64,000 nt of DNA from Candidatus Spongiisociaceae bacterium (GCA_965202665.1 OZ241841.1:1735367-1799366), one strand, 5' to 3'. Positions 3,972-51,744 are shown, numbered from the stretch's first letter. Translations and numbers: made by a program. The notes: generated by a model from the sequence alone, not told the origin.

Positions 3972-4021
3972 ATTCCGCTCCTCGCTCCAGGCCCAAAACA
4001 ATATGCTAGGCTCCGGGTAGT

Positions 4022-15794: not shown

Positions 15795-15850
15795 CGGCCG
15801 GGAGGGGGTCTCCGGGATGCATGGCAACGCAAGGTCGTCAGCGGGGGGTT
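15795..15850. mobile_element. short remnant resembling the left end and first codons of the IS481-family element found at 36.6 kb
   Basis: gggagggggtctccgggatgcatggcaacgcaaggtcgtc is about 85% identical to 36628-36670 (IS481 left end plus MHGNARSS). Homology stops after about 50 bp. Confidence 0.3.
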
Positions 15851-16648: not shown

Positions 16649-16880
16649 CCGCTACCCCCTCCGTCTGAACGGGTTGGCCTACTAACCAGGAACGAGCAGG
16701 CAGTGGCGGAACAGACCCTGCCGTGAAACATATGCCACAAGCAAAAAGGGGCCTCTGACCTGCGATTACGCCCAAATACAGCACCGCAAAGGCCTAACGG
16801 ATTGGACAACCCAGATCAGCCTGTGTATAATTTGGACTGCGACCGAACGGATACGGATTAGGGAAAGGCAGACACAGACA

Positions 16881-17797: not shown

Positions 17798-18005
17798 GCT
17801 GTTTTTGGGGTGGGGTCCTCCATTATGGTTTTGGTGGGGTTGGATAGGGTTGAGGTGGTAGGGGCGGAGGAGACGGGCCGGGCGGTTGACGGGGGCGGGG
17901 GCGGGCGGCGGCGTTGTGGGGGATGGGGGCTTTGGTGGGACTATAATGGGCGTTAAGGCGCCGGATTTGGCGACGGCGGTGTTATTCTGCCGTTTCAACC
18001 CTCGG
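17798..18005. mobile_element. ISL3-like element remnant (left-end region only)
   Basis: ttggggtggggtcctccat...ggttgaggt.g...ggcggaggagacgggcc matches 51028-51165, immediately upstream of the ISL3 transposase fragment. Copy 1 carries internal deletions. Confidence 0.35.
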
Positions 18006-35308: not shown

Positions 35309-35339
35309 CTCCCGTCGCCGATGCTAGTCCCCGGAGACA

Positions 35340-35575
35340 GGTGCGGGGAGCGGCTTAGTCCGCAAAACCCGCCCCCGGAGCCGGGGAGTCCGGGGAGCGG
35401 GGGGAACCGGGGCGAAGTAGCCGACCACCGACAACAGCGCGCCCACCCCCGGGAAGGAAACCACCCTGGTCAGGGCCCCGGTGTTGCCCAGGTCCATCAG
35501 GAAAAGTTTGACCACCACCATCAGGGACGCCCCGGCGATCCAGCCCGCCCGTTGCCCTTTCGCCCGAGCCCGCCC
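35340..35575 (-). pseudogene. partial duplicate of the 3' end of the 32594-35308 membrane-protein gene
   Basis: 35380-35570 is about 90% identical to 32640-32830 and encodes ...AGWIAGASLM..KLFLMDLGNTGALTRVVSF... Confidence 0.5.
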
Positions 35576-35596
35576 CGATAAAAACGTTCCCCCGCC

Positions 35597-35630
35597 CCAA
35601 GCGCAACCCCCTAATCCCACGCGAAGAGCC
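35597..35630 (-). repeat. ISL3-type terminal-repeat-like motif (copy 1 of 5)
   Basis: The reverse complement gives GGCTCTTCGCGTGGGATTAGGGGGTTGCGCTTGG. It is similar to the motifs at 44398, 44957 (reverse), 50978 and 51679. Confidence 0.45.
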
Positions 35631-35636
35631 CTTAAC

Positions 35637-35673
35637 AGGAGGAGCCTCCCCCGCTCAGCGGGGGAGGCCTCCT
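35637..35673. other. conserved 3'-UTR hairpin of the surface-protein cassettes (copy 1 of 3)
   Basis: GGAGGAGCCTCCCCCGCTCAGCGGGGGAGGCCTCC has an 11-bp perfect stem. It recurs at 44353-44389 and 44965-45002, each 20-25 nt after a cassette stop codon. Confidence 0.5.
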
Positions 35674-35697
35674 GGCGTGTTGGGTTGCGTGAAAGGC

Positions 35698-36522
35698 TTA
35701 TCGGGTGATCTGGTAAACAGTCAGCAACCGAGGACTGCTCCCCATAGGCGCGTCGTCAACCGTGCCCTCTTCCCTTATACCGGAGTACAGGGCACCAGAT
35801 GTTTTGTCGTAGGTGGTCTGCCATCCCAGACGGGCGTTGACCCGGGGACCCAGGAACTCTTCGTCCGGGGTGCTGTCGGTAGCCCATCCGGTTGCGGGCT
35901 TCGTGAAGGTCACCACCGAACCCCGGAAGTCGCCTTCCTGTCGATAATGACGACCGGCCGCGATCTCCGAACCGTCGCTTTTGATGGCGACGTACTGGCC
36001 GAACACATCCTGATTTCTGGGAGATGATACGGTCAGATTAAATCCGGCGGTAGCCGCAATCGAATCAGCATGTTGGGCGTGTAAAACCCCCCAGCCGTCC
36101 GCATGGTCAGGCTTAACGTACACGCGCATCGAACCGGGCACGTTAGCCTGAGCCTGGAAGTGGTTGGAGATGACGAGGGTGTTTCCATCCTCGGAGAGGG
36201 CCACGTACTTGCCAAACTCATTGTAGGCGGGTTGCGCTAAGCGGTTAGCCCATTTGGCATGGCCATCTGCATGGGTGGCGTCACCGATATCCGTCCAACC
36301 ACCAGCGGGCTTGACATACAAGAATACCAATCCTAGACAGACACCGGAAGAAAGACTGCAGTGGGTGGAGGCGATCGTGTCCCCATCTCCGTCGATGGCA
36401 ATGGACCGCTCGTTGTTCCAACCAGTGCCGACAAACAACACATGAGTGTCGGCATCGGTGTGATCGTTATCGTCATCCCAATTACCGGCCGTGGGATTCG
36501 CGGGTTTTTCGTATACCAACAC
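35698..36522 (-). pseudogene. 3' (C-terminal FG-GAP/beta-propeller) portion of a surface-protein cassette, separated from its 5' part by the IS481 insertion
   Basis: Homologous to the C-termini of the 40750 and 45026 proteins (..SPRNQDVFGQYVAIKSDGSEIAAGRHYRQEGDFRGSVVTF..LTVYQITR). The ORF begins right at the IS481 left end. Confidence 0.6.
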
Positions 36523-36536
36523 TGCCCCGCTGCTAT

Positions 36537-37629
36537 CGCTAGCTGTACTTGGCCAGGACGTTGGTGACGGTTTGGTTGTTGCATAAGTGAAGACCTCCTG
36601 GTGTTATGGGGAGTGAAAGCACCCTATAGCACGGGAGGAGGTCTTCAGGGATGCATGGTAACGCGAGGTCGTCGCCTTTGGGACGTTTGGGGATGGTGTT
36701 GCGGGTGATAGAAGAAGGGGAACCGGTAGCGCGGGTGGCTCGGGGGATGGGCCTGTCCCGGCAGTGCGTGTCCAAGTGGGTGCGCCGCTACCGGGAAGAA
36801 GGCCAAGCCGGTTTGGAAGACCGGTCGTCTCGGCCGCGTTGTTCCCCTATGCGTACCAGCCCGGAGGTGGAAGAGCTGGTGCTGCGGGCGCGGCGGCGGT
36901 TGCGGGCGGGGCCCGCTCGGTTGTCGGCGTTTACGGGGGTGCCGGAGCGGACGATCAGCCGTATCCTCCGCCGCCATGGAGTGTTGCGTCTGTGGGAATG
37001 CGACCCGCTGACCGGCGAACCGCTCAAGTCCCCTCCCGGGCCGGTGGTGCGGTATGAACGGGACAGGCCTGGTGAGTTGCTGCATATGGATGTTAAGAAG
37101 CTTTCTTCCATACCGCCCGGCGGGGGATGGAAGGTACACGGCCGGGGCAACGCCCCCGCCAGCGGAGCGGGATGGACTTTTGTGCACTCTGTCGTGGACG
37201 ACTACACCCGCCTCGCCTACTCCGAAACGCTATCAGACGAGAAAGGAACCACCGTCGCCGCGTTCACCGCCCGCGCCCTCAACCACTTCCGCCAACTAGG
37301 CATAACCCACATCGCGGAGATCATGACCGACAACCACTGGAGCTACACCCGCAGCCGCCTATTCTCTTCCCTGCTCGCCCAGCACGACATCCGTCATATC
37401 ACGATCAGACCGTATCATCCCCAGCAGAACGGCAAAGTGGAACGATACAACCAAACCCTCAAACGAGAATGGGCCAACTCCCAATCCTGGCCCGACAACC
37501 AAACCCGAAACCAAGCCCTCCGCCACTGGCTCCACTACTACAATAACCACCGGCCCCACTACAGCCTCGGAGGCAAACCACCAACCTCCAGACTGTAACC
37601 AACCTATTGGCCATGTACAGCTAGCCGGT
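36537..37629 (+). mobile_element. intact IS481-family insertion sequence
   Basis: Imperfect terminal inverted repeats GCTAGCTGTACTTGGCCA / TGGCCATGTACAGCTAGC. Flanked by a 7-bp direct repeat GCTGCTA (36529-36535 and 37630-37636). One transposase ORF. Confidence 0.8.
36651..37598 (+). CDS. IS481-family transposase (DDE integrase core)
   Basis: N-terminal HTH (ARGMGLSRQCVSKWVRRYREEG) and rve-domain DDE core (HMDVKK...TDNHWSY...YHPQQNGKVERYNQT). Confidence 0.9.
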   Translation: MHGNARSSPLGRLGMVLRVIEEGEPVARVARGMGLSRQCVSKWVRRYREEGQAGLEDRSSRPRCSPMRTSPEVEELVLRARRRLRAGPARLSAFTGVPERTISRILRRHGVLRLWECDPLTGEPLKSPPGPVVRYERDRPGELLHMDVKKLSSIPPGGGWKVHGRGNAPASGAGWTFVHSVVDDYTRLAYSETLSDEKGTTVAAFTARALNHFRQLGITHIAEIMTDNHWSYTRSRLFSSLLAQHDIRHITIRPYHPQQNGKVERYNQTLKREWANSQSWPDNQTRNQALRHWLHYYNNHRPHYSLGGKPPTSRL

Positions 37630-37636
37630 GCTGCTA

Positions 37637-39715
37637 CTGCGATGGTGGAGCCGTCGGAGGATATGGCAACCCCCTCCCCGAAACCATGGTTGAAGGGGTT
37701 GGTAGCAGACGGTTCTAGGGTGGCGTCTAGCGACCAAGTGCCATTGCTTTGACGGGTGTAGACATAGACTTTTTTGAGTCCTTCTCGGCTTCCGACTACT
37801 ACCGTGTCGCCGCTGATGTCCACATCCCACCCGAAGTAACCATTTTGCATGATGGTTGGGGGGGTGAGTTTGACGATGGCGCTGGCGGCGGTGTTCATCC
37901 CGTTGGGGTAGATGTACACCATCCCCGCCCTAGTACGCGTCACGTCATCTGCAGCATCGTTGTTGCCCATGTCGTCTACAACGCTTTCGTAAGAGGCTCC
38001 GACGACTATTACTCCGTTGTCGGCTGCTACGGCTTGCCCGTAGCGGGCGATGGCCCCGGCCCTGGCCCCGTCGGGGTGGTTGAGGCTGGGCCATTCCTCC
38101 TGCAAAGCGAAGGTGCTGACTTTGCCCGCTTCGTCCTGGTAGGCGGTTACTTTCAGGTGAGCCCCCGCCGGGTCGGCGTCCTCCGCTAAGGGTTTCTCGA
38201 ACTCGGCCATCACGGTGGGTCCGTCGAAGTTGGAGAACTGGTCGTTGGCGTCGTATTTGACCAGCATCAGTTTCTCCTCAGCGGCTACTACCAGCTGGTC
38301 GTTGTCGGGGTCTTTCACCAGGATGCGGCCGGTGAACGGCGCCCCGTCCGGTTCCTCCACCCAGTAATGGTAGACACGAGCCTCATGGGAGTTCAGATCA
38401 ATGTCGACGCCGTCGTTTTCAGGCCGATCTTCGCTACCGTCCGCTACTCCCACCACCTCGCTGAAGGTGGCCCAGATGGTTTCGATGACGCTGTCGGTGC
38501 TGTCGTAGTTGTAACCGAGGTTGGCCCGGCCGTCCCGTCCGGTGGTCCGCGTATACCGGCCCGTACCCGACAGCGTACGCTTCCCGCCGGATGAGCCGAC
38601 GGTGATACCGGCGGGCGCGGTGGAACCCACCCCCAAAATAACGGAGCAATCCGCGTCCTCATCTTTGGCCTTGGTGCACAAAGAGTCGGAAAGGAAACTG
38701 ATCCGTTTGCCGCGTACTGGGTCGCCGAACTGGTCGGTCAGTGTGGCCGTGACCGTGTTGCCGGCCCCTTGGCCTTCGTCCGACGCCAGAACGAACTCGT
38801 TGCGGGATGTGACCGTCAGCGTGGCCGGCCTCGGCGCTTCGTCCGACCAGCTGTAGGTGTCGGAGGAGAAGTCGCTTCCGTCCTCGTTTTTGAACGGCAA
38901 CCCGGCCGGCGGGTTGGTCAACGTCAACGTCACCGTCGCGCTGTCGCCGGTGTTGGTGCTGGGATCGGTTTGGGTGAATTCCAAAACGATTTTCCCGTCG
39001 GCGTCGGTCGTCATGCTGTTGGTGGAGGACGTGGTGTTGTCCCCCACCGTAGTGCTCTGCGCGACGGTTACCCGTTTGCCTTTGTCGGCTACGGCTTTGT
39101 CGTCCGGGTCGGCGATTTGGATGGTGACGGTGACGGTTTCCCCGAACTTGGAGCGGGTCTGCCCTTCCTCCAAGTTGTCGGTCACCAAAGTTTGGGTGGC
39201 CGCTTTGGAGAACCCGACGGTCAGTTGGGCGCGGGTGGTGTCATCGGAGTCGAACTTGTCGCCCCGGTCGCCGGTCCAGGCCCACACCGTCGCGTCCGCG
39301 TCCGTGATCTGCAAGGACAAATCGGTGAGGTCCCCCGACGCGTCGGTGGTGCTGTCCCCCAAATCCACCTCGCACGCCGTCTGCCCCACTTGCCCCACCC
39401 GATTCACATTCGCCGTAACGCACGCCCCGTCGTCCCCGAACGCCTCATCCGCGTCAGCGGAACGGAACACGTCCACCGACGCGTCCTGCACCGGCTGGAA
39501 GTTCACATCCCGCACCGACACAATCAACGGCACGCCCTGCGCCCCCAGCACCATATCCTGCTCGCTCTGAATCGACACCCCCGCCGGACGGGCGATGGTA
39601 TGCGCAAACGCCCGGGTGATGAACGACGCCGAATACATCGGAGCGAAATCAATGTCCTCCTCCTTACCATGCGTCCCCACCGCACCCGGAGGAGAAACCC
39701 CCAACCGAACATCAA
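37637..39715 (-). pseudogene. surface-protein cassette fragment (Ig-like middle plus start of propeller); lacks signal peptide/SLH region and is 3'-truncated by IS481
   Basis: Near-identical to the 45026-48565 protein from GVSPPGAVGTHG through ...SLNHPDGA. The SLH-domain segment is deleted (MYSA|SFITRAFAHT). The far 5' end is fused to an IS481 fragment. Confidence 0.65.
38100..39700. repeat. about 1.6 kb near-exact repeat (direct copy at ~46358-47958; inverted copy within 40801-42415)
   Basis: Identical translated ORFs appear on the track: 38857-39570(+) = 47115-47828(+) = 41538-42251(-), and 38367-38594 = 46625-46852. Confidence 0.8.
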
Positions 39716-40060
39716 GCGGGCGCACCGCCACCGGCAGGAGAGGAAGACCGGTCTGGGAAGACCGGTCATCGCGGCCGCGCGTTCCCCGGGCGTGCGCCAC
39801 CCCAGCGACGGAAGAAGAACAGGTGTTACGCACGCGGCGGGCCTTCCCGAGCGGGTTGCCGACGTCGATGGGCAGCCGGGGAGCTGGCTATCAACCGCAT
39901 CCTCCGCCGCGATGGGAAACGCTACTCTGCAGGAATCCGATCAGCTGACCGGCGAGCCGCTCAGAACCAGTCCCGGGCGGATGGTGCGGCATGAGCGCGG
40001 CAGGCCGGGAAAGTCGCCGCACAGGAACGTTGACAACCGTCTTGTTTTGAACCCCTTCAC
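39715..40060 (+). mobile_element. 5'-truncated, degenerate IS481 transposase-gene fragment
   Basis: About 80% nucleotide identity to 36758-37100 of the intact IS481 (..CGCCGCTACCGGGAAGAAGG..). Frames are broken. Confidence 0.5.
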
Positions 40061-40632
40061 CGGCTCGCGGTGCCCGCGCTGAATGAAACCACCACCCGGA
40101 TTTGAAATCGACGAACAGATGGCGAGGCGGCGGACAGGCGGATAGCCGACTGTCGATGAAGCTGTCCTCCGTCCCCAACTGGAAAATGCCTACCGGAAGG
40201 CCGTTCGCATCCCAGCCCCTCGTCAGACCGCGCAAAGCCCGCTTCCGTCGTCATCCGCAGTTCGTCCAGTCGTCTGCCCCGCTTCGCCGCGGGGCGACGA
40301 GGCGGGTGAGAACTTGGCGGGAGTCTGGCCGCCCTCCTTAATACATGGGACCCGCTCTCCGCTCCGAAGTGCCGGCTCATCCATCTCGCAACTGAGCAAA
40401 CGCCCGCTCCCCGCTTGTTGGAACCGAAACGCGGCCGAGCGAACCTACCGCACCGTTCTTGGGCCGCCGATGTTTGCGCCGGGCGGCCGGCGGGCCGGCG
40501 GGAGGCGTCGGCGCCGGTTGGGATGGCGTTGGAGAGCCCGGCGCGGCGTGCGGTTTTGCCGTCCCGGCCAGCGGCCGCGACCGGCTTCTCGGGCCGGGCC
40601 GAAAATCGTTTTAAGAAATTTCCGATTTTGAC

Positions 40633-40660
40633 TTGACAAGTTTTTTGGGGACGCTAATGT
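40633..40660 (+). promoter_or_regulatory. candidate sigma-70-type promoter of the only intact surface-protein gene
   Basis: TTGACA (40633-38), 16-nt spacer, TAATGT (40655-60). RBS GGAAGGA lies 10 nt before the ATG at 40750. Confidence 0.4.
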
Positions 40661-40749
40661 ATCGCGTGTTGAGGCGTAGGCCCCGGTATTGCCCTCCGGT
40701 AGCCAGCGTGTTAGGCAAACGAAAAATGGGCTTGGAAGGAGTAGTCGTG

Positions 40750-43700
40750 ATGGCGAAAGTGTCGGGTCGGGTTTGGATGGTGGGTCTTTTAGTGTTGGGT
40801 TTGGTGGTGAGTTTGTTGGGGGTTTCTCCTCCGGGTGCGGTGGGGACGCATGGGGAGGAGGAGGACATTGATTTCGCTCCCATGTATTCGGCGTGCGTGG
40901 GGCGGGCGACGGATTCGGCCGGTTTTGAGGACACGGCGGGCATCGGCGCGGAGGAGGCGATTGATTGCTTGTTCCATTATGGGATCACGAAAGGCCGGTC
41001 GGAGACCATGTACGCTCCGTCGGAGTCGGTGCTGCGGTGGCAGATGGCCCTGTTTTTGGCCCGGGCGTCGATGGCGGCGGGGATCGTGTTGGACAACCCG
41101 GCTGAGGATCAGGGGTTCACGGACATCAGCGCGGTGTCGGAAGAGGCCCAAAACGCCATCAACGGTTTAGCCAAAGAAGGGATCATGCCCGGCACGTCCG
41201 CGACGACGTTCAGCCCGAATTCGTCAGTGAACCGGGGTTCCATGGCGATGCTGCTGGACGCGTTCCTTTCCAAGGCCACTCCGGGGACGGGGGCGTTCGG
41301 GGAAGCGACGGAGAAGTACGCGGATGTAAAAGCCGACAACTTCAACGTGTTCACGGATGTGAACACGGTGTCGCTGAACACCTACAACGCCATATACCGC
41401 ATTTACGAGCTGGGGGTCACGAAAGGGGTGGCGGAACATCAGTTCAACCCGGCCGGGCTGGTAACGCGGGGGCAGATGGCGTCGTTCATCACCCGGGCGT
41501 TTGCTCATACCATCGCCCGTCCGGCGGGGGTGTCGATTCAGAGCGAGCAGGATATGGTGCTGGGGGCGCAGGGCGTGCCGTTGATTGTGTCGGTGCGGGA
41601 TGTGAACTTCCAGCCGGTGCAGGACGCGTCGGTGGACGTGTTCCGTTCCGCTGACGCGGATGAGGCGTTCGGGGACGACGGGGCGTGCGTTACGGCGAAT
41701 GTGAATCGGGTGGGGCAAGTGGGGCAGACGGCGTGCGAGGTGGATTTGGGGGACAGCACCACCGACGCGTCGGGGGACCTCACCGATTTGTCCTTGCAGA
41801 TCACGGACGCGGACGCGACGGTGTGGGCCTGGACCGGCGACCGGGGCGACAAGTTCGACTCCGATGACACCACCCGCGCCCAACTGACCGTCGGGTTCTC
41901 CAAAGCGGCCACCCAAACTTTGGTGACCGACAACTTGGAGGAAGGGCAGACCCGCTCCAAGTTCGGGGAAACCGTCACCGTCACCATCCAAATCGCCGAC
42001 CCGGACGACAAAGCCGTAGCCGACAAAGGCAAACGGGTAACCGTCGCGCAGAGCACTACGGTGGGGGACAACACCACGTCCTCCACCAACAGCATGACGA
42101 CCGACGCCGACGGGAAAATCGTTTTGGAATTCACCCAAACCGATCCCAGCACCAACACCGGCGACAGCGCGACGGTGACGTTGACGTTGACCAACCCGCC
42201 GGCCGGGTTGCCGTTCAAAAACGAGGACGGAAGCGACTTCTCCTCCGACACCTACAGCTGGTCGGACGAAGCGCCGAGGCCGGCCACGCTGACGGTCACA
42301 TCCCGCAACGAGTTCGTTCTGGCGTCGGACGAAGGCCAAGGGGCCGGCAACACGGTCACGGCCACACTGACCGACCAGTTCGGCGACCCAGTACGCGGCA
42401 AACGGATCACGTTCACCTCCGACACTCTGTGCGTGAAGAAGCAACCGACTGACGCGGAGTGCGTCACGCACGGCGTGGGCGCCAACAACTACATGCGCAC
42501 CACCGGACGGGACGGCCGGGCCAACCTCGGTTACAACTACGACAACACGAACAGCGTCATCGAGGCCATCCGGGCCACCTACACCTACGTCGGCACCGAG
42601 GGAGTGCGGGGAGTGGTCGACACCACCGACCCCCTTCCCATGGGCGACCCGAAGGACGAGACCGTGTTGACGTCTGAGCCCGTTCACCATTACTGGGTGG
42701 AGGAACCGACCGGGGACCCGTTCACCGGGCGCATCTTGGTGAAAGACCCCGACAACGACCAGGTGGTGGTAGCCGCTGAAGAGAAACTGATGCTGGTCAA
42801 ATACGACGGGAACGACCAGTTCAACCTCGAGTCGGGAACCACCATCTTCTCCGAGTTCGAGAAACTGCTGGAAGAAAACGCCGACCCGGCGGGAGCCCAC
42901 CTGAAGGTAACCTCCTACGAAGACGCCGCCGCCGACGTTAGCGTCTTCACCGTACAAGAAGAATGGCCCGGCCTAGACCACCCCGCAGGCGCCAACGGCC
43001 GCTTCAACTACCCAATCGTGGTAGCCGACAACGGCATAATCGTCGTCGGGCATTACCTTGAGACGGTGACGTCGGGCGGCACCCAGATGCCACATGCGGG
43101 CGCAGTTTACATTTATCCGAACGGGATGGACACCGCCGCGAACAATATCGTGAAGCTGACCGCCCCCACTCCTTTCGCTTGCGGGTATTTCGGATATGAT
43201 GTGGACATCACCGACAACACGGTGGTAGTCGGCAACGCGTTCGTCGGCATCGACTCCGGTAGGTTGCGTCCGGTGGTGGGATTGGGCGAGGGTCAAACTT
43301 GCGCTATGTCCTCCTCCTATGAGAAAAAGGTCTACGTGTACACCCGCACAGATAGCGGATGGCCCATCGACGCCACATTTACCAGCGTCGATGCCCAGAA
43401 CAACACTGGTTTCGGGGAGGGGGTGGCTATCTCCTCCGATGGTTCCACCATCGCGGTGGTAGGACCCGGCTCGAATAATAATGGGGCCGTGTTCGTGTTC
43501 GAGAAGCCCCAAACCGGAGGCTGGGTGGACAACACCACCGCCGGTCAAGGCCGTCTGAGGGGCGGTGGCGGCGATGGGGTCGGATGGATTCGAACCGAAC
43601 GGTCTGTCGCTATCTCCGGGGACGGTTCGGTAATCGCCGCTGGCGGTTGCAACAACGAAGGCAGCACCGGCACGTGCGGAGGGTGGCTGTATGTGTACGA

Positions 43701-44328
43701 GAAGGACCCCACCGCCAGCTGGGACGGGGTCACCAAAGCCGATGGCGACGCCCGCTTCCTGGCCTATGAGGGAACGGGTGATCCTAATGTCGCTACCGAT
43801 TACGGTCAAGGGCGGCAATCTAGACATGAGTTCGCCAAGTACGTGGCGCTCTCCGACGACGGAACCGTGTTGGTCGCCTCCGGGCACTACCGAGCTGAGG
43901 CTGAAAAGCCGGGGGAAGTGTACGTGTGGAACAAACCGGAAACAGGCGGCTGGAGAGTGCATCACATCGATCGGCGGCTACCCGGCATGACCCCCAACGT
44001 TGGCTTCAAGTTGAAGGTCTCGTCTCCCCGTAACAGCGACGTGTTCGGACAATACATCGCCGTAACCGGCGACGGTTCGGAGATAGCCGCTTCCCGCCAC
44101 TACCGGCAGGAAGGCACCTTCCGGGGTTCGGTGGTGACCTTCAAGCGTCCCGCCGACGGCGCCTGGGCAAACGACAGCACACCCGACGACGAGTACTTGG
44201 GTCCCTATGTCCGAGCCCACCTGGGGTGGCAGACCACCTACGACAAATCCAACAGTGATCTATACACCGCGGTGTCCGCGGCCAATGATATGGAAAGCCC
44301 GCTTTCCATCTTCAAGATCACCCGATAA
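40750..44328 (+). CDS. large S-layer-homology (3x SLH) domain surface protein with bacterial Ig-like (Big) domains and C-terminal FG-GAP beta-propeller repeats; intact expression copy
   Basis: Signal peptide MAKVSGRVWMVGLLVLGLVV. Three SLH repeats (FxD...AIxxL...GIxxG...F.P...V.RGQMA.FL.RA). Ig-like T/V-rich domains. FGEGVAISSDGSTIAV-type FG-GAP repeats. 1192 aa. Confidence 0.8.
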   Translation: MAKVSGRVWMVGLLVLGLVVSLLGVSPPGAVGTHGEEEDIDFAPMYSACVGRATDSAGFEDTAGIGAEEAIDCLFHYGITKGRSETMYAPSESVLRWQMALFLARASMAAGIVLDNPAEDQGFTDISAVSEEAQNAINGLAKEGIMPGTSATTFSPNSSVNRGSMAMLLDAFLSKATPGTGAFGEATEKYADVKADNFNVFTDVNTVSLNTYNAIYRIYELGVTKGVAEHQFNPAGLVTRGQMASFITRAFAHTIARPAGVSIQSEQDMVLGAQGVPLIVSVRDVNFQPVQDASVDVFRSADADEAFGDDGACVTANVNRVGQVGQTACEVDLGDSTTDASGDLTDLSLQITDADATVWAWTGDRGDKFDSDDTTRAQLTVGFSKAATQTLVTDNLEEGQTRSKFGETVTVTIQIADPDDKAVADKGKRVTVAQSTTVGDNTTSSTNSMTTDADGKIVLEFTQTDPSTNTGDSATVTLTLTNPPAGLPFKNEDGSDFSSDTYSWSDEAPRPATLTVTSRNEFVLASDEGQGAGNTVTATLTDQFGDPVRGKRITFTSDTLCVKKQPTDAECVTHGVGANNYMRTTGRDGRANLGYNYDNTNSVIEAIRATYTYVGTEGVRGVVDTTDPLPMGDPKDETVLTSEPVHHYWVEEPTGDPFTGRILVKDPDNDQVVVAAEEKLMLVKYDGNDQFNLESGTTIFSEFEKLLEENADPAGAHLKVTSYEDAAADVSVFTVQEEWPGLDHPAGANGRFNYPIVVADNGIIVVGHYLETVTSGGTQMPHAGAVYIYPNGMDTAANNIVKLTAPTPFACGYFGYDVDITDNTVVVGNAFVGIDSGRLRPVVGLGEGQTCAMSSSYEKKVYVYTRTDSGWPIDATFTSVDAQNNTGFGEGVAISSDGSTIAVVGPGSNNNGAVFVFEKPQTGGWVDNTTAGQGRLRGGGGDGVGWIRTERSVAISGDGSVIAAGGCNNEGSTGTCGGWLYVYEKDPTASWDGVTKADGDARFLAYEGTGDPNVATDYGQGRQSRHEFAKYVALSDDGTVLVASGHYRAEAEKPGEVYVWNKPETGGWRVHHIDRRLPGMTPNVGFKLKVSSPRNSDVFGQYIAVTGDGSEIAASRHYRQEGTFRGSVVTFKRPADGAWANDSTPDDEYLGPYVRAHLGWQTTYDKSNSDLYTAVSAANDMESPLSIFKITR
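40801..42415. repeat. about 1.6 kb segment identical, in inverted orientation, to 46954-48568 (5' conserved region of the surface-protein genes)
   Basis: Track ORFs 40835-41170(+) = 48196-48531(-) and 41109-41381(-) = 47985-48257(+) are identical at the amino-acid level. Confidence 0.8.
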
Positions 44329-44352
44329 GCCTTTCACGCAACCCAACACGCC

Positions 44353-44389
44353 AGGAGGCCTCCCCCGCTTAGCGGGGGAGGCTCCTCCT
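44353..44389. other. conserved cassette 3'-UTR hairpin (copy 2, inverted)
   Basis: AGGAGGCCTCCCCCGCTTAGCGGGGGAGGCTCCTCCT. Confidence 0.5.
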
Positions 44390-44397
44390 GTTAAAGC

Positions 44398-44957
44398 GGC
44401 TCTTGTTTTAGGGGGGAGTTAGAGGTTAAGGGGGTTGCGTTTGGGGCGGGGGGCGAGCGTTTTATTGGGGCGGGGTGGGGCGGCGGCCGGTCAGCTAACG
44501 TTCATAGCCGTGCCGGACGGTCGCCCCGGAGCCGTCCAGCCTTTCCAGCGACGGAACTGCGTATTTGCGGGTCAGCCCCATCGCGTCCCGGAAGGCGGCC
44601 ACCGTGAACCGCTCCGGCAAGTCGCCCAAGCGGGCCAGAAGTTCTTCAATCTGTTCGGGCAGATAGACCAGATGGTCGGAGATCCGCACCAGCCGGCCTT
44701 CCCGCACCAGGATGTGCACCGGGTTCCGGGTCCGCCCGCAGTTCCGCCACCCGGGGGGCTTGCAGCCCTGCCCCCCGCAACTCCCGCTGTATGCGTTCCC
44801 GCTTGGCGTTTTCCCCCTCTCGGAAGGCGAGGGCGAAACCGGCCTCCGCCACCGCCGAACCCCTTGCTGAAGATCGTCCCTCGTATTTAGAGGCGATGAC
44901 AGCCAGTAGCGACCCCCGCCCTAAACCAGCGCAACCCCCTAATCCCACGCGGAGAGC
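44398..44957. mobile_element. inverted-repeat-flanked segment carrying a duplicated selB 3' fragment (MITE-like/ISL3-derived)
   Basis: IR-like GGCTCTTGTTTTAGGGGGGAGTTAGAGGTTAAGGGGGTTGCGTTTGG at 44398-44444, with its inverted counterpart at 44911-44957. The interior 44440-44860 is about 90% identical to 51690-52140 (selB C-terminus plus downstream). Confidence 0.55.
44495..44900 (-). pseudogene. selB C-terminal fragment (duplicate)
   Basis: Encodes ..HILVREGRLVRISDHLVYLPEQIEELLARLGDLPERFTVAAFRDAMGLTRKYAVP.LE.LDGSGATVRHG.ER, matching the winged-helix C-terminus of the full selB at 51745. Confidence 0.7.
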
Positions 44958-44964
44958 CCTTAAC

Positions 44965-45002
44965 AGGAGGAGCCTCCCCCGCTGAGCGGGGGAGGCCTCC
45001 TG
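44965..45002. other. conserved cassette 3'-UTR hairpin (copy 3)
   Basis: AGGAGGAGCCTCCCCCGCTGAGCGGGGGAGGCCTCC, 24 nt downstream of the stop of the 45026 gene. Confidence 0.5.
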
Positions 45003-45025
45003 GCGTGTTGGGTTGCGTGAAAGGC

Positions 45026-48000
45026 TTATCGGGTGATCTGGTAAACAGTCAGCAACGTGCCGGCTTCGACAGACTCTCGTATCCCGGAGTACAGGGTGCC
45101 GGAGGTCTTGTCGTAGGTGGTCGCCCATCCCATACGGGCGTTAACCCGGGGACCCAAGAACTCTTCGTCCGGTGTGCTGTCGGAGGCCCATCCAGTAGCG
45201 GGCTTCGTGAATGTCACCACCGAACCCCGGAAGTCGCCTTCCTGCCGATAATGACGACCGGACGCGATCTCCGAACCGTCGCCTTTGATGGCAATGTACT
45301 GGCCGAACACATCCTGGTTTCTGGGGGACGACACGGTCAGATCAAATCCTGTTGTCGCTTCCTCCGAATCCGCTTGAGTGTCAACGTGCCAACTTTCCCA
45401 GCTCGTGCCGGGCCTGACGTACACACGTATCGTCCCGGGCACATTTCTAGGACTAGTCTGACCCTGGTAGTGGTTGGAGACGACCAGGGTTGTCCCGTCA
45501 TCGGTGAGAGCCAAGTACTTGGCAAACTGAGTTCCGCTACCACCCATTCCGCGATTGCGGATGCGAGCACCGTCGGTTCCTGAACCTCCGTCGGACTGGT
45601 CCGCCCAGCCGCCAGCAGGCTTCTTATACACGTATATCCATCCTCCGGTATTGCCAGCGGCGATCGTCTCCCCATCCCCGGAGATAGCAATGGCCCGTTC
45701 GTTGCTATAGCCATTCCCGATTCTCAGTTCAGGTTCATCAGCGTGAGTGGCATCGGCAGCCCAGCCCGTGCCGGGCTCTTCATATACCACTATCCTTCCT
45801 TCGTTGCCCTGGTCGTCAGCCCCGATCACCGCAATGGTGGAACCGTCGTCGGATATGGCAACTCCCTCTCCGAACCCCTGGCCGAAATCGGCATTCTCAG
45901 TACTCGGATTCGGGGACAATATCTTAGTAGTGGTGGTCGGCCAACCAGCACTCTCCTTTTCATAAATGTAGACCTTCCGCAACCCTCTTTGCCCCGCGGG
46001 CAACTGATGGTGGTATCGGGTTCCGACGACGATGGTGTCGCCTGCGATGTCCACGTCGTGTCCGAAGAAGCCGTTGGCTACGATATCCGTGGCTGGGGGG
46101 GTAAGTTTGACGATGTTGCCGGCGGCGGTGTTCATCCCGTTGGGGTAGATGTACACCATCCCCGCGTTAGTACGCGTCACGTCATCAGTTTCCATGCAAG
46201 TGGCCAGAGCGTCGCGGCAGGAGCCCATTTGCACCACAATGGTTTCTCTGGGGGCTCCGACGACTATTACTCCGTTGTCGGCTGCTACCGCCTCCCCAAA
46301 TCTGGCGGCGGCTCCGTCTTCTGCCCCGTCGGGGTGGTTGAGGCTGGGCCATTCCTCCTGCAAAGCGAAGGTGCTGACTTTGCCCGCTTCGTCCTGGTAG
46401 GCGGTTACTTTCAGGTGAGCCCCCGCCGGGTCGGCGTCCTCCGCTAAGGGTTTCTCGAACTCGGCCATCACGGTGGGTCCGTCGAAGTTGGAGAACTGGT
46501 CGTTGGCGTCGTATTTGACCAGCATCAGTTTCTCCTCAGCGGCTACTACCAGCTGGTCGTTGTCGGGGTCTTTCACCAGGATGCGGCCGGTGAACGGCGC
46601 CCCGTCCGGTTCCTCCACCCAGTAATGGTAGACACGAGCCTCATGGGAGTTCAGATCAATGTCGACGCCGTCGTTTTCAGGCCGATCTTCGCTACCGTCC
46701 GCTACTCCCACCACCTCGCTGAAGGTGGCCCAGATGGTTTCGATGACGCTGTCGGTGCTGTCGTAGTTGTAACCGAGGTTGGCCCGGCCGTCCCGTCCGG
46801 TGGTCCGCGTATACCGGCCCGTACCCGACAGCGTACGCTTCCCGCCGGATGAGCCGACGGTGATACCGGCGGGCGCGGTGGAACCCACCCCCAAAATAAC
46901 GGAGCAATCCGCGTCCTCATCTTTGGCCTTGGTGCACAAAGAGTCGGAAAGGAAACTGATCCGTTTGCCGCGTACTGGGTCGCCGAACTGGTCGGTCAGT
47001 GTGGCCGTGACCGTGTTGCCGGCCCCTTGGCCTTCGTCCGACGCCAGAACGAACTCGTTGCGGGATGTGACCGTCAGCGTGGCCGGCCTCGGCGCTTCGT
47101 CCGACCAGCTGTAGGTGTCGGAGGAGAAGTCGCTTCCGTCCTCGTTTTTGAACGGCAACCCGGCCGGCGGGTTGGTCAACGTCAACGTCACCGTCGCGCT
47201 GTCGCCGGTGTTGGTGCTGGGATCGGTTTGGGTGAATTCCAAAACGATTTTCCCGTCGGCGTCGGTCGTCATGCTGTTGGTGGAGGACGTGGTGTTGTCC
47301 CCCACCGTAGTGCTCTGCGCGACGGTTACCCGTTTGCCTTTGTCGGCTACGGCTTTGTCGTCCGGGTCGGCGATTTGGATGGTGACGGTGACGGTTTCCC
47401 CGAACTTGGAGCGGGTCTGCCCTTCCTCCAAGTTGTCGGTCACCAAAGTTTGGGTGGCCGCTTTGGAGAACCCGACGGTCAGTTGGGCGCGGGTGGTGTC
47501 ATCGGAGTCGAACTTGTCGCCCCGGTCGCCGGTCCAGGCCCACACCGTCGCGTCCGCGTCCGTGATCTGCAAGGACAAATCGGTGAGGTCCCCCGACGCG
47601 TCGGTGGTGCTGTCCCCCAAATCCACCTCGCACGCCGTCTGCCCCACTTGCCCCACCCGATTCACATTCGCCGTAACGCACGCCCCGTCGTCCCCGAACG
47701 CCTCATCCGCGTCAGCGGAACGGAACACGTCCACCGACGCGTCCTGCACCGGCTGGAAGTTCACATCCCGCACCGACACAATCAACGGCACGCCCTGCGC
47801 CCCCAGCACCATATCCTGCTCGCTCTGAATCGACACCCCCGCCGGACGGGCGATGGTATGAGCAAACGCCCGGGTGATGAACGACGCCATCTGCCCCCGC
47901 GTTACCAGCCCGGCCGGGTTGAACTGATGTTCCGCCACCCCTTTCGTGACCCCCAGCTCGTAAATGCGGTATATGGCGTTGTAGGTGTTCAGCGACACCG

Positions 48001-48570
48001 TGTTCACATCCGTGAACACGTTGAAGTTGTCGGCTTTTACATCCGCGTACTTCTCCGTCGCTTCCCCGAACGCCCCCGTCCCCGGAGTGGCCTTGGAAAG
48101 GAACGCGTCCAGCAGCATCGCCATGGAACCCCGGTTCACTGACGAATTCGGGCTGAACGTCGTCGCGGACGTGCCGGGCATGATCCCTTCTTTGGCTAAA
48201 CCGTTGATGGCGTTTTGGGCCTCTTCCGACACCGCGCTGATGTCCGTGAACCCCTGATCCTCAGCCGGGTTGTCCAACACGATCCCCGCCGCCATCGACG
48301 CCCGGGCCAAAAACAGGGCCATCTGCCACCGCAGCACCGACTCCGACGGAGCGTACATGGTCTCCGACCGGCCTTTCGTGATCCCATAATGGAACAAGCA
48401 ATCAATCGCCTCCTCCGCGCCGATGCCCGCCGTGTCCTCAAAACCGGCCGAATCCGTCGCCCGCCCCACGCACGCCGAATACATGGGAGCGAAATCAATG
48501 TCCTCCTCCTCCCCATGCGTCCCCACCGCACCCGGAGGAGAAACCCCCAACAAACTCACCACCAAACCGG
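45026..48570 (-). CDS. SLH-domain surface-protein paralog with a distinct C-terminal propeller variant; 5' end (signal peptide/start) disrupted by a poly-G tract and IS481 fragment
   Basis: Identical to the 40750 protein from VVSLLGVSPPGAVGTHG through ..PVRGKRI, then divergent. Ends ..LLTVYQITR. There is no start codon, RBS or promoter; the sequence runs into GGGGGGGGGGGGGCGGCGGGGGGGGGGGGG at 48571-48601. Confidence 0.65.
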
Positions 48571-48601
48571 GGGGGGGGGGGGCGGCGGGGGGGGGGGGGG
48601 G
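48571..48601. repeat. poly-G homopolymer tract (probable sequencing/assembly artefact)
   Basis: A run of 14 G, then CGGC, then 13 G. It sits exactly at the junction between the surface-protein 5' region and the IS481 fragment. Confidence 0.7.
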
Positions 48602-49210
48602 CCGCTACCGGGAGGAAGGTGAGGCTGGTTTGGGGAAGACCCGTCGTCGCGGCCGCGTGCCCCCGGCCGCGCGCCACCCCAGCGGTAGAAGAAGAACAAC
48701 AGGCGTTACGCGCGCGGCGGGCGTTCCGGACGGCCAGGCCGGTTATCCGACGTTGATAGGGCGCCGGGAAGACGGCTATCAACCGCACCCTCCGCCGCTA
48801 TAGGAACATTGCTCAGTAGGAACGCCATCAGCCGACCAGCAAGCCGCTCAGAACCAGTCCCAGACGGGTGATGCTGCACGAACGCAGCAAGTCGGGAAAA
48901 TCGCCGCTGGACCCGTTGGAGCCAGTGGCGGAGGGCTTGGTTTCGGGTTTGGTTGTATCGCTCTACTTTGCCGTTCTGCTGGGGATGATAGGGTTTGATC
49001 GTGATATGACGGATGCCGTGCTGGGAGAGCAGGGAAGCGAATGCTCGGCTGCGGGTGTAGCTCCAGTGGTTGTCGGTCATGATCTCCGCGATGTGGGTTT
49101 ATGCCTAGTTGGTGGAAGTGGTGGAGGGCGCGGGCGGTGAACGCGGCGACGGTGGTTCCTTTCCCGTCCGGCAACGGCTCGGAGTAGGCGAGGCGGGTGT
49201 AGTCGTCCAC
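48601..49210. mobile_element. rearranged degenerate IS481 copy (5'-truncated N-terminal part on + strand, C-terminal part inverted)
   Basis: 48601-48900 is about 80% identical to IS481 36773-37070. Minus-strand ORFs encode MDDYTRLAYSE...GTTVAAFTARAL and MTDNHWSYTRSR...YHPQQNGKVERYNQT. Confidence 0.55.
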
Positions 49211-49420
49211 AGTCCCAGCCTGAATTAGGATGTCCAGGTTTCCAGGCCATCAGCAGGCACCATCATCCAGGCTGTATATGACCTCTGGTTCAGCCTGTGC
49301 CTGGTCAGGCTGATAGTGGTCTGTGGCATACACAGGCAACAGGTATCTGACCTGCTGTTTGTTGGATGTAGCAGGTTTCTGCTGTGGATGGCCGCAATGA
49401 GGGGGGCTAGGCTCTGCTGG

Positions 49421-49912
49421 TTAGCATCGTGTCATAAAAGCAGTATCGCTTGTTCTTATGTTAAAAATATATGGGTCAGATAGGCCAGTGGGGGATATTT
49501 CTAGAGCAGCATCTGACGCTGCTAGCGTATCAAAGTTTTGGTCTCCATCGGGTATAAAATCTAAACGCATCCAACGGCATCGATAACTACCTGTTCGATA
49601 TCGTCCAGGTTCAATATAACGGATATGTGTCTGATTATCATACCAAATCTCACCATTTGAATTGCGTATATTCTGAATATTATCACCGCCAGGGTTAGCC
49701 CTTACAAAAAAGATTTGGGTTCCACTTTGAAAATCAAATTGAACATAACCTGGTATTTGTTGTTTCACCCTTTGTCGCCATTGGTTCCCTGCGACTATGA
49801 ATGAGGCGAATTCAGCTCTGGTTATTCCATCATCAAACGCCCTTTGTAGTACTTTCAATAGACCATCTATCCTGCTCCTGGATGGCCTGCTGGATGGCCC
49901 GCACGGTGGCAA
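49421..49912 (-). CDS. hypothetical protein in low-GC patch
   Basis: ORF in a roughly 35% GC segment. Confidence 0.3.
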   Translation of the reverse strand: MPPCGPSSRPSRSRIDGLLKVLQRAFDDGITRAEFASFIVAGNQWRQRVKQQIPGYVQFDFQSGTQIFFVRANPGGDNIQNIRNSNGEIWYDNQTHIRYIEPGRYRTGSYRCRWMRLDFIPDGDQNFDTLAASDAALEISPTGLSDPYIFNIRTSDTAFMTRC

Positions 49913-49959
49913 ACTGGATTGCCATTTGGATGTTCTGCTGGTCAGACATCAGGCCTGTC

Positions 49960-50184
49960 CTATTCTGCTATCAGAGCATTCTGGATAGTCAGGATGACGG
50001 CAGGGAAACCGCAATCCTGGATGGACTGGTTGGCCTGCTGAACATCAGGTTCTGCCTGCTGGATACCTGGATGGTCTGACAGAGCCTGGACAGCATCATC
50101 CAAATCCTGGACTGACCATTTCAGTTTGTAATACAGAGCATCCAGTTGTTTTTGAATACCAGTGTCAGGGTTCTGTTCTGCCAT
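49960..50184 (-). CDS. small acidic hypothetical protein
   Basis: MAEQNPDTGIQKQLDALYYKL...; its N-terminus resembles the ORFs at 50368-50700 and 17383-17616. Confidence 0.3.
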   Translation of the reverse strand: MAEQNPDTGIQKQLDALYYKLKWSVQDLDDAVQALSDHPGIQQAEPDVQQANQSIQDCGFPAVILTIQNALIAE

Positions 50185-50367
50185 CAGCCTATCCTGATTA
50201 TCTGCTCTGCCTGGTTCTGCGTCAGGCCTGTGCGGTCAGTGCTATCAGTCCATCATCAGGCAGGACAGGAATAGTCAGGCAATTACCTGACATCCGAACC
50301 TGACGGAGCAGACCCTTGGTCTGGTCAGAGCCTGATAGATGTGGCCTGACAGACTGGTCTGGCGCCA

Positions 50368-50700
50368 TCAGGCAGGCTCCATCCAGGCAGGGTCAGATTT
50401 CACCATTGCCACTACAGCGTTCCAGGCCATCAGGACAGACACTATTTCATCCCTGACTTCCAGCAGATTTTCAAATGCCTGATCGACAGATTTCCATTGG
50501 TTATGGAACATCAGGGCAGTGTCTGTGTCCAGACCAGCAGGCAGGACAGGAAATGGCAGAACAGGCTCGGGTTCATCAGTCAGGCCTGCCTTCTGTATGA
50601 CCTGTCTCATAACCTTGTCCAGACTGGCACCTGCCACAATGGACTGGATGATGTCCAGCAGGTCTGCCCTGACCTGCTCCGCCGTGTTCTGCTCTGTCAT
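50368..50700 (-). CDS. small acidic hypothetical protein
   Basis: MTEQNTAEQVRADLLDIIQSIV...; paralog-like to the neighbouring small ORF. Confidence 0.3.
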   Translation of the reverse strand: MTEQNTAEQVRADLLDIIQSIVAGASLDKVMRQVIQKAGLTDEPEPVLPFPVLPAGLDTDTALMFHNQWKSVDQAFENLLEVRDEIVSVLMAWNAVVAMVKSDPAWMEPA

Positions 50701-50977
50701 TGTTCCCTTCCATCTCGGGTGCTTACCCTATTTATACATCAGGCTGATATGATTTGTCCAGTCCATCAGGCTCTGGTGGTGCCGTAAATTGGCATAACCG
50801 CAGGTCATAGGCGGTTTCTGCTAACGGCAAATGTTTCACGGCAGGGTCTGTTCTGCCGCTTACCACAGGTCTGTCAGGTCAGGTTCCAGGCAGATGTCAT
50901 CAGGCCTGGACATTCAGCAGTCTGCCATTCCAGGCTGGATGTGGTCAGTCCGTTCCTGTCAGGTCTGGTGGAATAGT

Positions 50978-51678
50978 GGCTCTTCGGATTTGAGGGGGGA
51001 GTAGGGGGTTAGGGGGGTTGCGTTGGTTTTGGGGTGGGGTCCTCCATAATCGGGGTTGTAAACCTATTCCCGAGGGTTAGGAGGACCCCTGTGGTGACCG
51101 ATTATAAGCGGGTGTGTAGGGTTTTGGCGGGGGTTGGAGGTTGAGGTAGTGGGGGCCGGAGGAGACGACCGGGGGCCTGGCGGTGGGGGTGCGGTTGGTG
51201 GGGAGGCCGCGGTGCGGGGTGTTGAGCAAGGGTTGGAGGAGGGCTCGGTTGGCGGATCAGCCCTGTTTCGGCCGGGCGGTGATTTTGGAATGGTCCAAAC
51301 GGCGGCGGCGGTGTCCTGATGCGGGGTGCGGGGTGGGGTCGTTTGCGGAGCAGGACCCGCGGATAGCCCCGGTGCGGGCCCGGTTGACTTCTCGGGCGGC
51401 TAGGTGGGCGACGCAGCAGGTGGGCCGGGGGCGGACGGCGGCGGGGGTGGCGGAGGAGATTGGTTGCGACTGGCGTACCGTAGCGAAGGAGGTGAACCGG
51501 TGGGGGGAAGCCCTGCTGGAAGCCGACCGGGATCGGGCGGGGATAGTGGAGGCTTAGGGTTGGACGAGACCCTGTTCCTCCGTCAGGGCCCTTGGCGGCG
51601 GAGGATGTGGATAACCGCGGCGGTGGACATCCGCAACCGTCGGCTGATCGACGTTTTCCCAGGTAAAGACGCTAAAGG
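50978..51678 (+). mobile_element. ISL3-family element remnant (left terminal repeat + frameshifted N-terminal half of transposase)
   Basis: Terminal motif GGCTCTTCGGATTTGAGGGGGG at 50978. Transposase fragments encode C..C zinc-ribbon CPDAGCGV, RTVAKEVNRW and LGLDETLFLRQGPWRRRMWITAAVDIRNRRLIDVFPGKDA, the ISL3 signature region. Interrupted at 51679 by another copy of the terminal motif. Confidence 0.6.
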
Positions 51679-51694
51679 GGTTCTTCGCGTTTGA
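51183..51694 (+). pseudogene. ISL3-family transposase, N-terminal ~190 residues, frameshifted and truncated
   Basis: Two overlapping frames (51183-51557 and 51404-51694) together reconstruct an ISL3 transposase N-terminus. Confidence 0.6.
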
Positions 51695-51731
51695 GGGGGG
51701 AGTTGGAGGTAAGGGGGTGACGCTGGTTTGG
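51679..51731 (+). repeat. ISL3-type terminal-repeat-like motif (copy 5), abutting the selB 3' end
   Basis: GGTTCTTCGCGTTTGAGGGGGGAGTTGGAGGTAAGGGGGTGACGCTGGTTTGG. Confidence 0.45.
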
Positions 51732-51744
51732 GGCGGGGGCGCGT

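Follow-up and report, generated by a model that had tools for sequence, protein, structure and literature searches.

The 64 kb stretch of the Candidatus Spongiisociaceae bacterium genome analysed here (GCA_965202665.1 OZ241841.1:1735367-1799366; the window in what follows) carries, between selB and a DUF2339 gene, three S-layer-type paralogues, SLH1, SLH2 and SLH3, whose products have SLH, Ig-like and FG-GAP domains. Among them are insertion sequences (IS) and five copies of a short motif, labelled A to E, that a preliminary description had taken for the terminus of an ISL3-family IS. Only 0.94 kb separate selB from DUF2339 in the related locus L103 (7846-8783), where the gap holds a DUF5615/DUF433 (toxin-antitoxin-like) gene pair, and 1.7 kb in L105 (3072-4822), where SelB is 77% identical and the gap holds three small genes. 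Since selB is next to DUF2339 in both, the region 35324-51745 can be delimited as a 16.4 kb island of SLH genes and insertion sequences. All of the close relatives come from one sample series, PANK22-1. The five motifs are decayed left ends of ISL3 elements that have probably been carried along passively, and they are probably not a working mobile element. The genes and hairpins that frame them are as follows:

32594-35308, minus strand: DUF2339 gene
35636-35674, minus strand: 3' hairpin of SLH1, with sister hairpins at 44352-44390 (plus strand, SLH2) and 44964-45002 (minus strand, SLH3)
35698-39833, minus strand: SLH1, S-layer-type gene with an SLH-family N-terminus and Ig-like and FG-GAP repeats, split by an IS481 element at 36538-37625
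40633-44328, plus strand: SLH2, full-length gene for an SLH/Big_1/FG-GAP protein
45026-48565, minus strand: SLH3, full-length paralogue
51745-53553, minus strand: selB, intact by Pfam and 3'-end alignment, C-terminus ...SLTGRRPAPPR
53541-54899, minus strand: selA

A profile made from the motif copies and run at maximum sensitivity against the window gave exactly five matches, at the places first described, with tips at 35630 (-), 44398 (+), 44958 (-), 50978 (+) and 51679 (+) for A to E, respectively, and E-values of 4.5e-14 to 6.2e-06. No others were found, and shuffles gave an expectation of 0 chance matches for the tip pattern and likewise for the subterminal pattern. All five copies match the left end of ISL3, and there is no right end in the window. 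Of the copies, D is the longest, and the other four (A, B, C and E) are relics of a left end that measure 45-67 nt:

35586-35630, minus strand: copy A, short-type left-end relic; a mosaic with a C-like tip half (17-nt deletion) and a B-like inner half (4-nt deletion)
44398-44462, plus strand: copy B, left-end relic of the long type; 3 nt are deleted near the tip (positions 8-10), and the 4-nt deletion is shared with A
44912-44958, minus strand: copy C, short-type left-end relic with a 17-nt deletion in the terminal repeat; its tip adjoins the SLH3 terminator tail
50978-51678, plus strand: copy D, the 5' 701 bp of an ISL3-family IS, with the left inverted repeat (IRL) at ~50978-51042 and then a frameshifted N-terminal part of the transposase
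51679-51745, plus strand: copy E, left-end relic (67 nt) from a second ISL3 that is nested in D; tip GGTTCTTCGCGTTTGAGGGGGGAGT

Two forms of the relic can be distinguished, long (B, D and E) and short (A and C), the short form being without the 17-nt block TTGAGGGGGGAGTTGGA. The 'GGGGGGAG' part of the motif as first described is consequently found in neither A nor C, and copy E reads GGGGGTGACG rather than GGGGGTTGCG. The tip variant is CGCGT in A, B, C and E and CGGAT in D. Copies A and C are 98% identical, flanks counted in (repeat family D6). A 4-nt deletion is common to A and B and absent from C, D and E, and the 17-nt and 4-nt deletions thus occur in all four combinations (A both, B the 4-nt only, C the 17-nt only, D and E neither), a pattern that points to recombination inside the relics, or to recurrent deletion. 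The motif had also been said to lie always beside a hairpin or the end of selB; this holds for A, B and C, where each hairpin ends 6-8 nt from the motif tip (the tip of B adjoins the SLH2 terminator tail GTTAAAGC), and for E at selB, but D is beside neither and instead heads the 701-bp remnant. The hairpin itself occurs exactly three times in the window, with a 17-bp stem, folding energies of -37 to -40 kcal/mol and z-scores of -3.4 to -4.6, and the 80-nt blocks that hold it are 99% identical (inverted repeats I14 and I15).

Searched at the protein level, the frameshifted transposase remnant of the window led to a near-complete ISL3 element of ~1.4 kb in the metagenome of a close relative (contig L098, 474-1880). 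Its termini match the motif (IRL GGCTCTTCGGATTTAAAGGGGGAGT; right inverted repeat, IRR, GGCTCTTCGGATTTTAGGGGGGTGT), it has the 8-bp target duplication CTTTAACC on both sides, and its transposase, P0087, carries HTH_Tnp_ISL3 and DDE_Tnp_ISL3 domains (PF13542, PF01610) and is 85-95% identical in amino acids to the window remnant (tblastn). At the nucleotide level, 50978-51678 aligns to nt 1-711 of this element with 91.6% identity over 713 columns, so that D is a true left end heading its remnant; to the IS of L040 the identity of D is 70% over 736 nt. The coding part of D comprises the zinc ribbon, the HTH and the start of the DDE domain, and the Pfam scores of the remnant for Zn_ribbon_ISL3 (22.5 bits) and HTH_Tnp_ISL3 (25.9 bits) are each slightly under the cut-off. 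No ISL3 DDE region and no intact ISL3 were found anywhere in the window.

When species-representative genomes were scanned with the tip pattern, GGCTCTTCG..TTT.AGGGGGGAGT was found to bound elements of ~1.44 kb at both ends at more than 15 loci; these belong to Acidimicrobiales and to metagenome-assembled genomes (MAGs) of sponge symbionts, encode DDE_Tnp_ISL3 transposases, and do not include the source species among the matches. ISArsp7 of Arthrobacter, a published actinobacterial ISL3, is 1,451 bp long and has GGCTCTTCGCG termini (IRL GGCTCTTCGCGGTTGG..., IRR GGCTCTTCGCGTTTCG...) and an 8-bp direct repeat (PMC6305408, Table 3). The terminal sequence GGCTCTTCGCG/GGATTT is common to the window motif and to known elements (ISArsp7 and that of L098), as is the transposase architecture of zinc ribbon, HTH_Tnp_ISL3 and DDE_Tnp_ISL3 in elements whose full relative measures ~1.4 kb and makes an 8-bp target duplication; at L102 the target duplication reads CTTATCC(G). 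The right end of ISL3 encodes the C-terminus of the transposase and therefore differs inside from the left end. Judged by these comparisons the motif is a genuine ISL3 left terminus, in agreement with the preliminary description, and the window element is an undescribed member of a well-known IS family, together with its scars. Unlike the known elements, it has no complete copy in the window; what is present there is a 5' remnant of 701 bp, the four relics (45-67 nt) and a tip-less fragment (below).

The same evidence bears on whether the motif could be a REP-like or regulatory repeat of the host, unrelated to any IS and kept for termination or for cassette-switching recombination. Three of the copies do lie directly 3' of a conserved hairpin, as such a role would have it. 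However, the motif is continuous and homologous with the left end of transposase-encoding ISL3 elements, the copies decay by indels while the adjacent hairpin stays 99% identical, and there are only five copies in 64 kb, all of them inside the island. REP-like spread was not seen in the profile search of the window, and a metagenome scan with the subterminal pattern GGWTWRGGGGGTTGCGYTKG gave 32 loci, all of them unrelated chance matches. A host repeat of this kind is hardly credible. On both of the refuting points named in the preliminary description, unrelated ISL3 termini and a REP-like repeat, the results go its way.

A sixth, tip-less left-end fragment of ISL3 is found outside the region 35597-51731:

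17800-17921, plus strand: matches IS positions ~47-73 and 140-242

Close to it, the 130-nt sequence next to copy D is repeated in inverted orientation (16702-16830 vs 50732-50860, 78% identical), and CAGGTCTG-like words are abundant around both the 17.8-kb/16.7-kb and the copy D neighbourhoods. The fragment and the repeat together suggest another old rearrangement that may have involved a D-type IS.

The tip of E cuts copy D off at GCTAAAGG. Copy D is homologous to the L098 element as far as ...GACGCTAAAGG, and E begins exactly there, which identifies E as a second ISL3 nested in D; the tip GGTTCTTCGCGTTTGAGGGGGGAGT of E recurs in contig L099. Another case of ISL3 within ISL3 is present in L102 (3344-5205), where the inner element starts at 3807, 21 nt from the position of E in D, and hints that the ISL3 transposase gene (...LIDVF/PGKDAKG) may contain an insertion hot spot.

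At its other end, E runs into selB. In locus L103 (88% nt identity) selB ends without an IS next to it. The window and L103 are identical through ...CCCCGATA, which takes in the SelB tail and the TA of the stop codon, and diverge from there on, so that the relic starts with the third base of this codon and ~67 nt of the IS are left. The stop codon is TAA in the window and TAG in L103, and that of the window (51745-51747) is a hybrid, with a native TA and a third base (A) from the IS relic. The truncating deletion thus ended within the stop codon and left SelB undamaged. The D/E/selB layout is also that of the sister strain L100 (97.4% identity). On the strand of the relic, the end of selB reads TATCGGGG. 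The subterminal box AATCGGGG, at IS nt ~72-79, is conserved in D, L040, L056, L059 and L025 and reads AATCGGAG in L098, and the alignment of D with E runs through ATCGGGG. A stretch of 28 nt after a 'TGA' was considered as the native 3' flank of selB and rejected, as the TGA is out of frame and the stretch is part of the SelB coding tail.

The join between relic and TATCGGGG is found in identical form at three places: at E, where the whole of selB follows; at B, where it is followed by ~410 nt of selB; and at A, where ~20 nt of selB are followed by a DUF2339 fragment. The sequences adjoining relics A, B and C on their inner sides are:

35369-35561, minus strand: DUF2339', duplicated last ~65 codons of DUF2339, 85.6% identical to 32626-32834 and matching Pfam DUF2339 profile positions 597-659
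35562-35581, plus strand: copy of the selB coding end, ~20 nt and the stop TA (GCCCGAGCCCGCCCCGATA), attached to relic A at its inner end, in the orientation opposite to that of the real selB
44463-44872, minus strand: selB', a pseudogene that repeats the final ~135 codons of selB; it meets relic B at the E-type junction and carries a 1-nt frameshift insertion
44873-44911, no strand assigned: filler of ~40-45 nt between selB' and relic C

The related locus L101 (92.5% identity over 8.6 kb) has the same relic at the same place as A and the same A junction, with the selB piece reading TATCGGGGCGGAGTGGGGCG. The shared join at E, B and A, together with its presence in L101, shows that the relic-selB junction arose once, long ago, and was then copied; the earlier proposal that an ISL3 end joined to the 3' end of selB had been carried to the 3' flank of S-layer-type genes is thereby borne out. 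It had further been proposed that the downstream flank of selB was copied too, but no native flank is present, the relic starting at the third base of the stop codon. Compared with subterminal regions of ISL3, the filler beside C scored 17 against a shuffle mean of 18.6, which is not significant, and it gave no other match in the window or in the related loci that were fetched. Relics A and E form the edges of the island; both are joined to selB-end sequence, and they are mutually inverted, with their tips pointing inward.

The copy of selB enclosed by B and C, put at ~470 bp in the preliminary description, extends over 44392-44865 and aligns to 51673-52147 with 90.4% identity over 481 columns. 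Its coding part, selB', is 90.6% identical to selB (9.4% diverged), whereas the window and L100 are 98.6% identical over the matching region; the differences are mostly unique to selB', and at a few sites it retains the state of L103/L105. These values, the frameshift and the retained states place the copying after the split from the L103 lineage and well before the split between the window and L100, with decay since then. The check on divergence called for earlier therefore returns an old event, and the relics as a whole are old, as selB' is 9.4% diverged and frameshifted and the junctions at A and E are common to relatives at 92-97% identity.

Separate insertion of an ISL3 beside each SLH terminator and beside selB, at AT-rich targets next to hairpins and with each copy truncated on its own, is another reading of the motifs. 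The ISL3 elements of related loci do sit in AT-rich 8-mers, the sequence flanking the tip differs slightly between copies (B GTTAAAGC, A and C GTTAAG, L101 GTTAAACC), and ISL3-in-ISL3 nesting has occurred twice, 21 nt apart (window and L102). Nevertheless, A, B and E have one and the same inner junction with the end of selB, which is impossible by independent origin, A and C are 98% identical with the flank included, and the CGCGT tip variant is common to A, B, C and E as against CGGAT in D. The shared junction largely refutes independent insertion for A, B and E, and it would be possible only for C or for a first insertion beside a terminator; as an account of the whole set it is very improbable.

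Copies B and C delimit a unit of 561 bp, with two left ends in inverted orientation and tips outward. Mobile insertion cassettes (MICs) and miniature transposable elements with inverted repeats (MITEs) consist of IS ends flanking passenger DNA without a transposase, for example the IS231-derived MICs of Bacillus cereus. The B...C unit is like them in having two inverted IS ends, tips outward, around ~450 bp of non-transposase DNA, and the main alternative to passive copying is that it is a non-autonomous element built from ISL3 ends, either MIC/MITE-like or one-ended, a reading judged unlikely. Spelled out, a transposase acting in trans would have cut at the tip of E and at a surrogate end within selB, and would have inserted the relic with ~410 nt of selB at a preferred GTTAAAG 3' of an SLH terminator, the segment being spread by later duplications.

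The structure of the unit departs from such elements at several points. There is no 8-bp direct target duplication around it, the left flank being GTTAAAGC (44390-44397) and the right flank CTTAACAG (44959-44966). The two flanks represent one terminator tail in opposite orientations, and beyond both tips the inverted match continues for 80 nt at 99% identity, that is, the unit is flanked by long inverted paralogous repeats. Both ends are left ends, and neither is intact: B has its 3-nt deletion, and C is without 17 of the 29 conserved terminal nt (TTGAGGGGGGAGTTGGA), including the family-conserved AGGGGGGAGT. The passenger is a decaying gene fragment, all copies of the motif are old and decayed, and a further copy of the unit turned up neither in the window, nor among the related loci, nor in the scan of metagenomes for the pattern.

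Elements such as ISEcp1 (IS1380 family) and IS91/ISCR, which move as a complete IS with their own transposase and, as a whole unit, are surrounded by target duplications, offer another comparison. Here too there is a likeness, in that an IS end is joined to variable lengths of adjacent host DNA (~20 nt, ~410 nt or the full gene) at several places. The window differs in having 67 nt of IS end only and no duplication: B and E keep 65-67 nt of the IS, where an ISEcp1-like unit needs a complete IS with its transposase at one end, and neither a transposase nearby nor an intact ISL3 in the window is present to supply it. Movement of the unit as a MITE or by one-ended transposition, as first suggested, is thus not upheld by its two left ends, its damaged end C, its missing target duplication or the single copy known, and passive copying by duplication and recombination probably fits the B...C unit better than transposition does.

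Some observations weigh against passive copying and in part speak for transposase action. The left edge of the B/E duplication lies within a few nt of the IS tip (44392/51673), as cleavage by a transposase would give. The tips of A, B, C, E and the L098 element all adjoin similar AT-rich sequences (GTTAAG, GTTAAAGC, GCTAAAGG, GGTTAAAG), which looks like a real preference for insertion sites. At the distal boundary, where the copied segment and the homology end, the real selB contains the tip-like 9-mer CGCCGAGCC (52135-52143), a 7/9 match to the tip CGAAGAGCC that could represent a surrogate end; an informal estimate of the chance of this is ~3-5%. Internally deleted ISL3 derivatives do occur in the family, for example the 527-bp element of L056 (5431-5957). 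Finally, the truncation of relic C lies within ~10-15 nt of the interior point at which A, B and E end, but what adjoins it is unrelated filler, and a passive model would have to take this truncation point as coincidence or as the outcome of microhomology in a run of G.

Passive copying draws on what has been shown of the motif, namely its ISL3 identity, a junction that arose once, copies of considerable age, the missing target duplication and the recombination within relics, and the order of events would then have been as follows. One ISL3 (D) would have landed in the variable gap between selB and DUF2339, and a second, of the E type, would have inserted into it at nt 701. A deletion that started at nt ~67-74 of the second IS and reached the stop codon of selB would have produced the hybrid TAA stop and removed the rest of both IS along with the native intergenic DNA; it may have run from the box AATCGGGG to the same ATCGGGG at the selB end (7-nt microhomologies). 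The single relic-selB junction would then have been copied to the 3' flanks of SLH genes, with ~410 nt of selB reaching SLH2 (B) and ~20 nt reaching SLH1 (A). SLH genes would have been duplicated in direct and inverted orientation, with gene conversion homogenising their 3' ends. In this scheme the copied module would be SLH gene, hairpin, relic and selB end, in that order, and B...C would represent the junction region of two convergent SLH paralogues, each with its own relic. The deletion model predicts ...GGGGCGGGGGCGCGTTTATCGGGG... within nt 60-85 of an intact E-type ISL3.

Homology-facilitated illegitimate recombination and microhomology-mediated deletion are general mechanisms of recombination in bacteria. 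The window resembles their products, since the copied segments end in shared homology (relic or terminator) on one side and in a non-homologous join on the other, and the IS-selB junction falls in a shared 7-nt ATCGGGG, although here the mechanism would be read solely from what it left behind, with no intermediates or polymorphic states observed.

Within the island, relic A with SLH1 and relic C with SLH3 form a direct duplication (35589-40020 vs 44913-48907), SLH1 and SLH2 are a head-to-head inverted pair, and SLH2 converges with SLH3. Over their 5' 1635 nt (40798-42432 and 46934-48568) the latter two make up an inverted repeat of 99.6-100% identity, and their 3' parts are only 72-76% identical. 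Recombination between the 1635-nt arms would invert 42433-46933 and exchange the variable parts, and the repeat may represent an S-layer gene switching arrangement. A promoter/terminator consensus scan of the divergent region between SLH1 and SLH2 found nothing. A search with the SLH C-terminal region gave four distant matches only, including L101, which has the conserved A junction, and L106, which ends at the hairpin; in L106 the hairpin is conserved with stem changes, and a head-to-head SLH pair is also present.

The motif had been proposed to mark recombination breakpoints throughout 35-52 kb; several breakpoints do coincide with relics, but many others lie at IS481 copies or inside SLH genes, so that the proposal goes too far. 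The IS481-family element that interrupts SLH1 (36538-37625) has a transposase gene at 36651-37598 and inverted repeats of 44 nt. Diverged or partial IS481 pieces are found at 39713-40021, 48595-48907 and 48917-49210, with a 42-nt end fragment at 15799-15839; IS481-like remnants are present upstream of SLH1 and SLH3 and there are none upstream of SLH2, and L100 has a fuller IS481 copy where the window holds 48917-49210 only. At the left edge of the island, DUF2339' lies directly upstream of the full DUF2339 gene, in an open frame (35324-35620), and is kept in L101; it could be the remnant of a tandem duplication or a templated insertion.

The nearest named relatives of SelB are from Acidimicrobiia/Actinomycetota MAGs, and the closest relatives of the ISL3 are from Acidimicrobiales. 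The window thus probably belongs to a high-G+C lineage of actinobacterial type, in which S-layer-type proteins with SLH domains are unusual. Elsewhere in the window, a PYLIS_3 pyrrolysine insertion element (Rfam, 60.9 bits; 21506-21605) lies inside an MTTB trimethylamine methyltransferase gene (20459-22021), and its position there indicates that the organism probably uses pyrrolysine as well as selenocysteine. The region 4001-9000 has a G+C content of ~43%, compared with ~67% elsewhere, and holds genes for an SNF2/helicase protein of 1025 aa and for an Hsp70-like one; the region is likely to be foreign DNA and may be a defence module.

Another form of mobility, in which a left-end-only ISL3 derivative of ~67 nt is mobilised in trans with variable host DNA and targeted to the GTTAAAG hairpin tail of S-layer-type genes, is improbable. 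If it were true, ISL3 ends would have helped to build and reshuffle an island of cell-surface genes, which goes beyond scarring, and one-ended non-autonomous movement, tied to cell-surface gene variation, would be added to the ISL3 family; the evidence does not favour this. Overall, the locus is probably a case of ordinary genome scarring and not an active new mobile element. It offers a worked example of genome archaeology, in which events are dated relative to sister lineages and a 16.4 kb S-layer-type/IS island is defined between selB and DUF2339, and it illustrates that a repeated 'terminal motif' around a gene fragment need not be a mobile element. It also presents selB, a gene of an essential pathway, as one that has had its stop codon rebuilt at an IS deletion junction.

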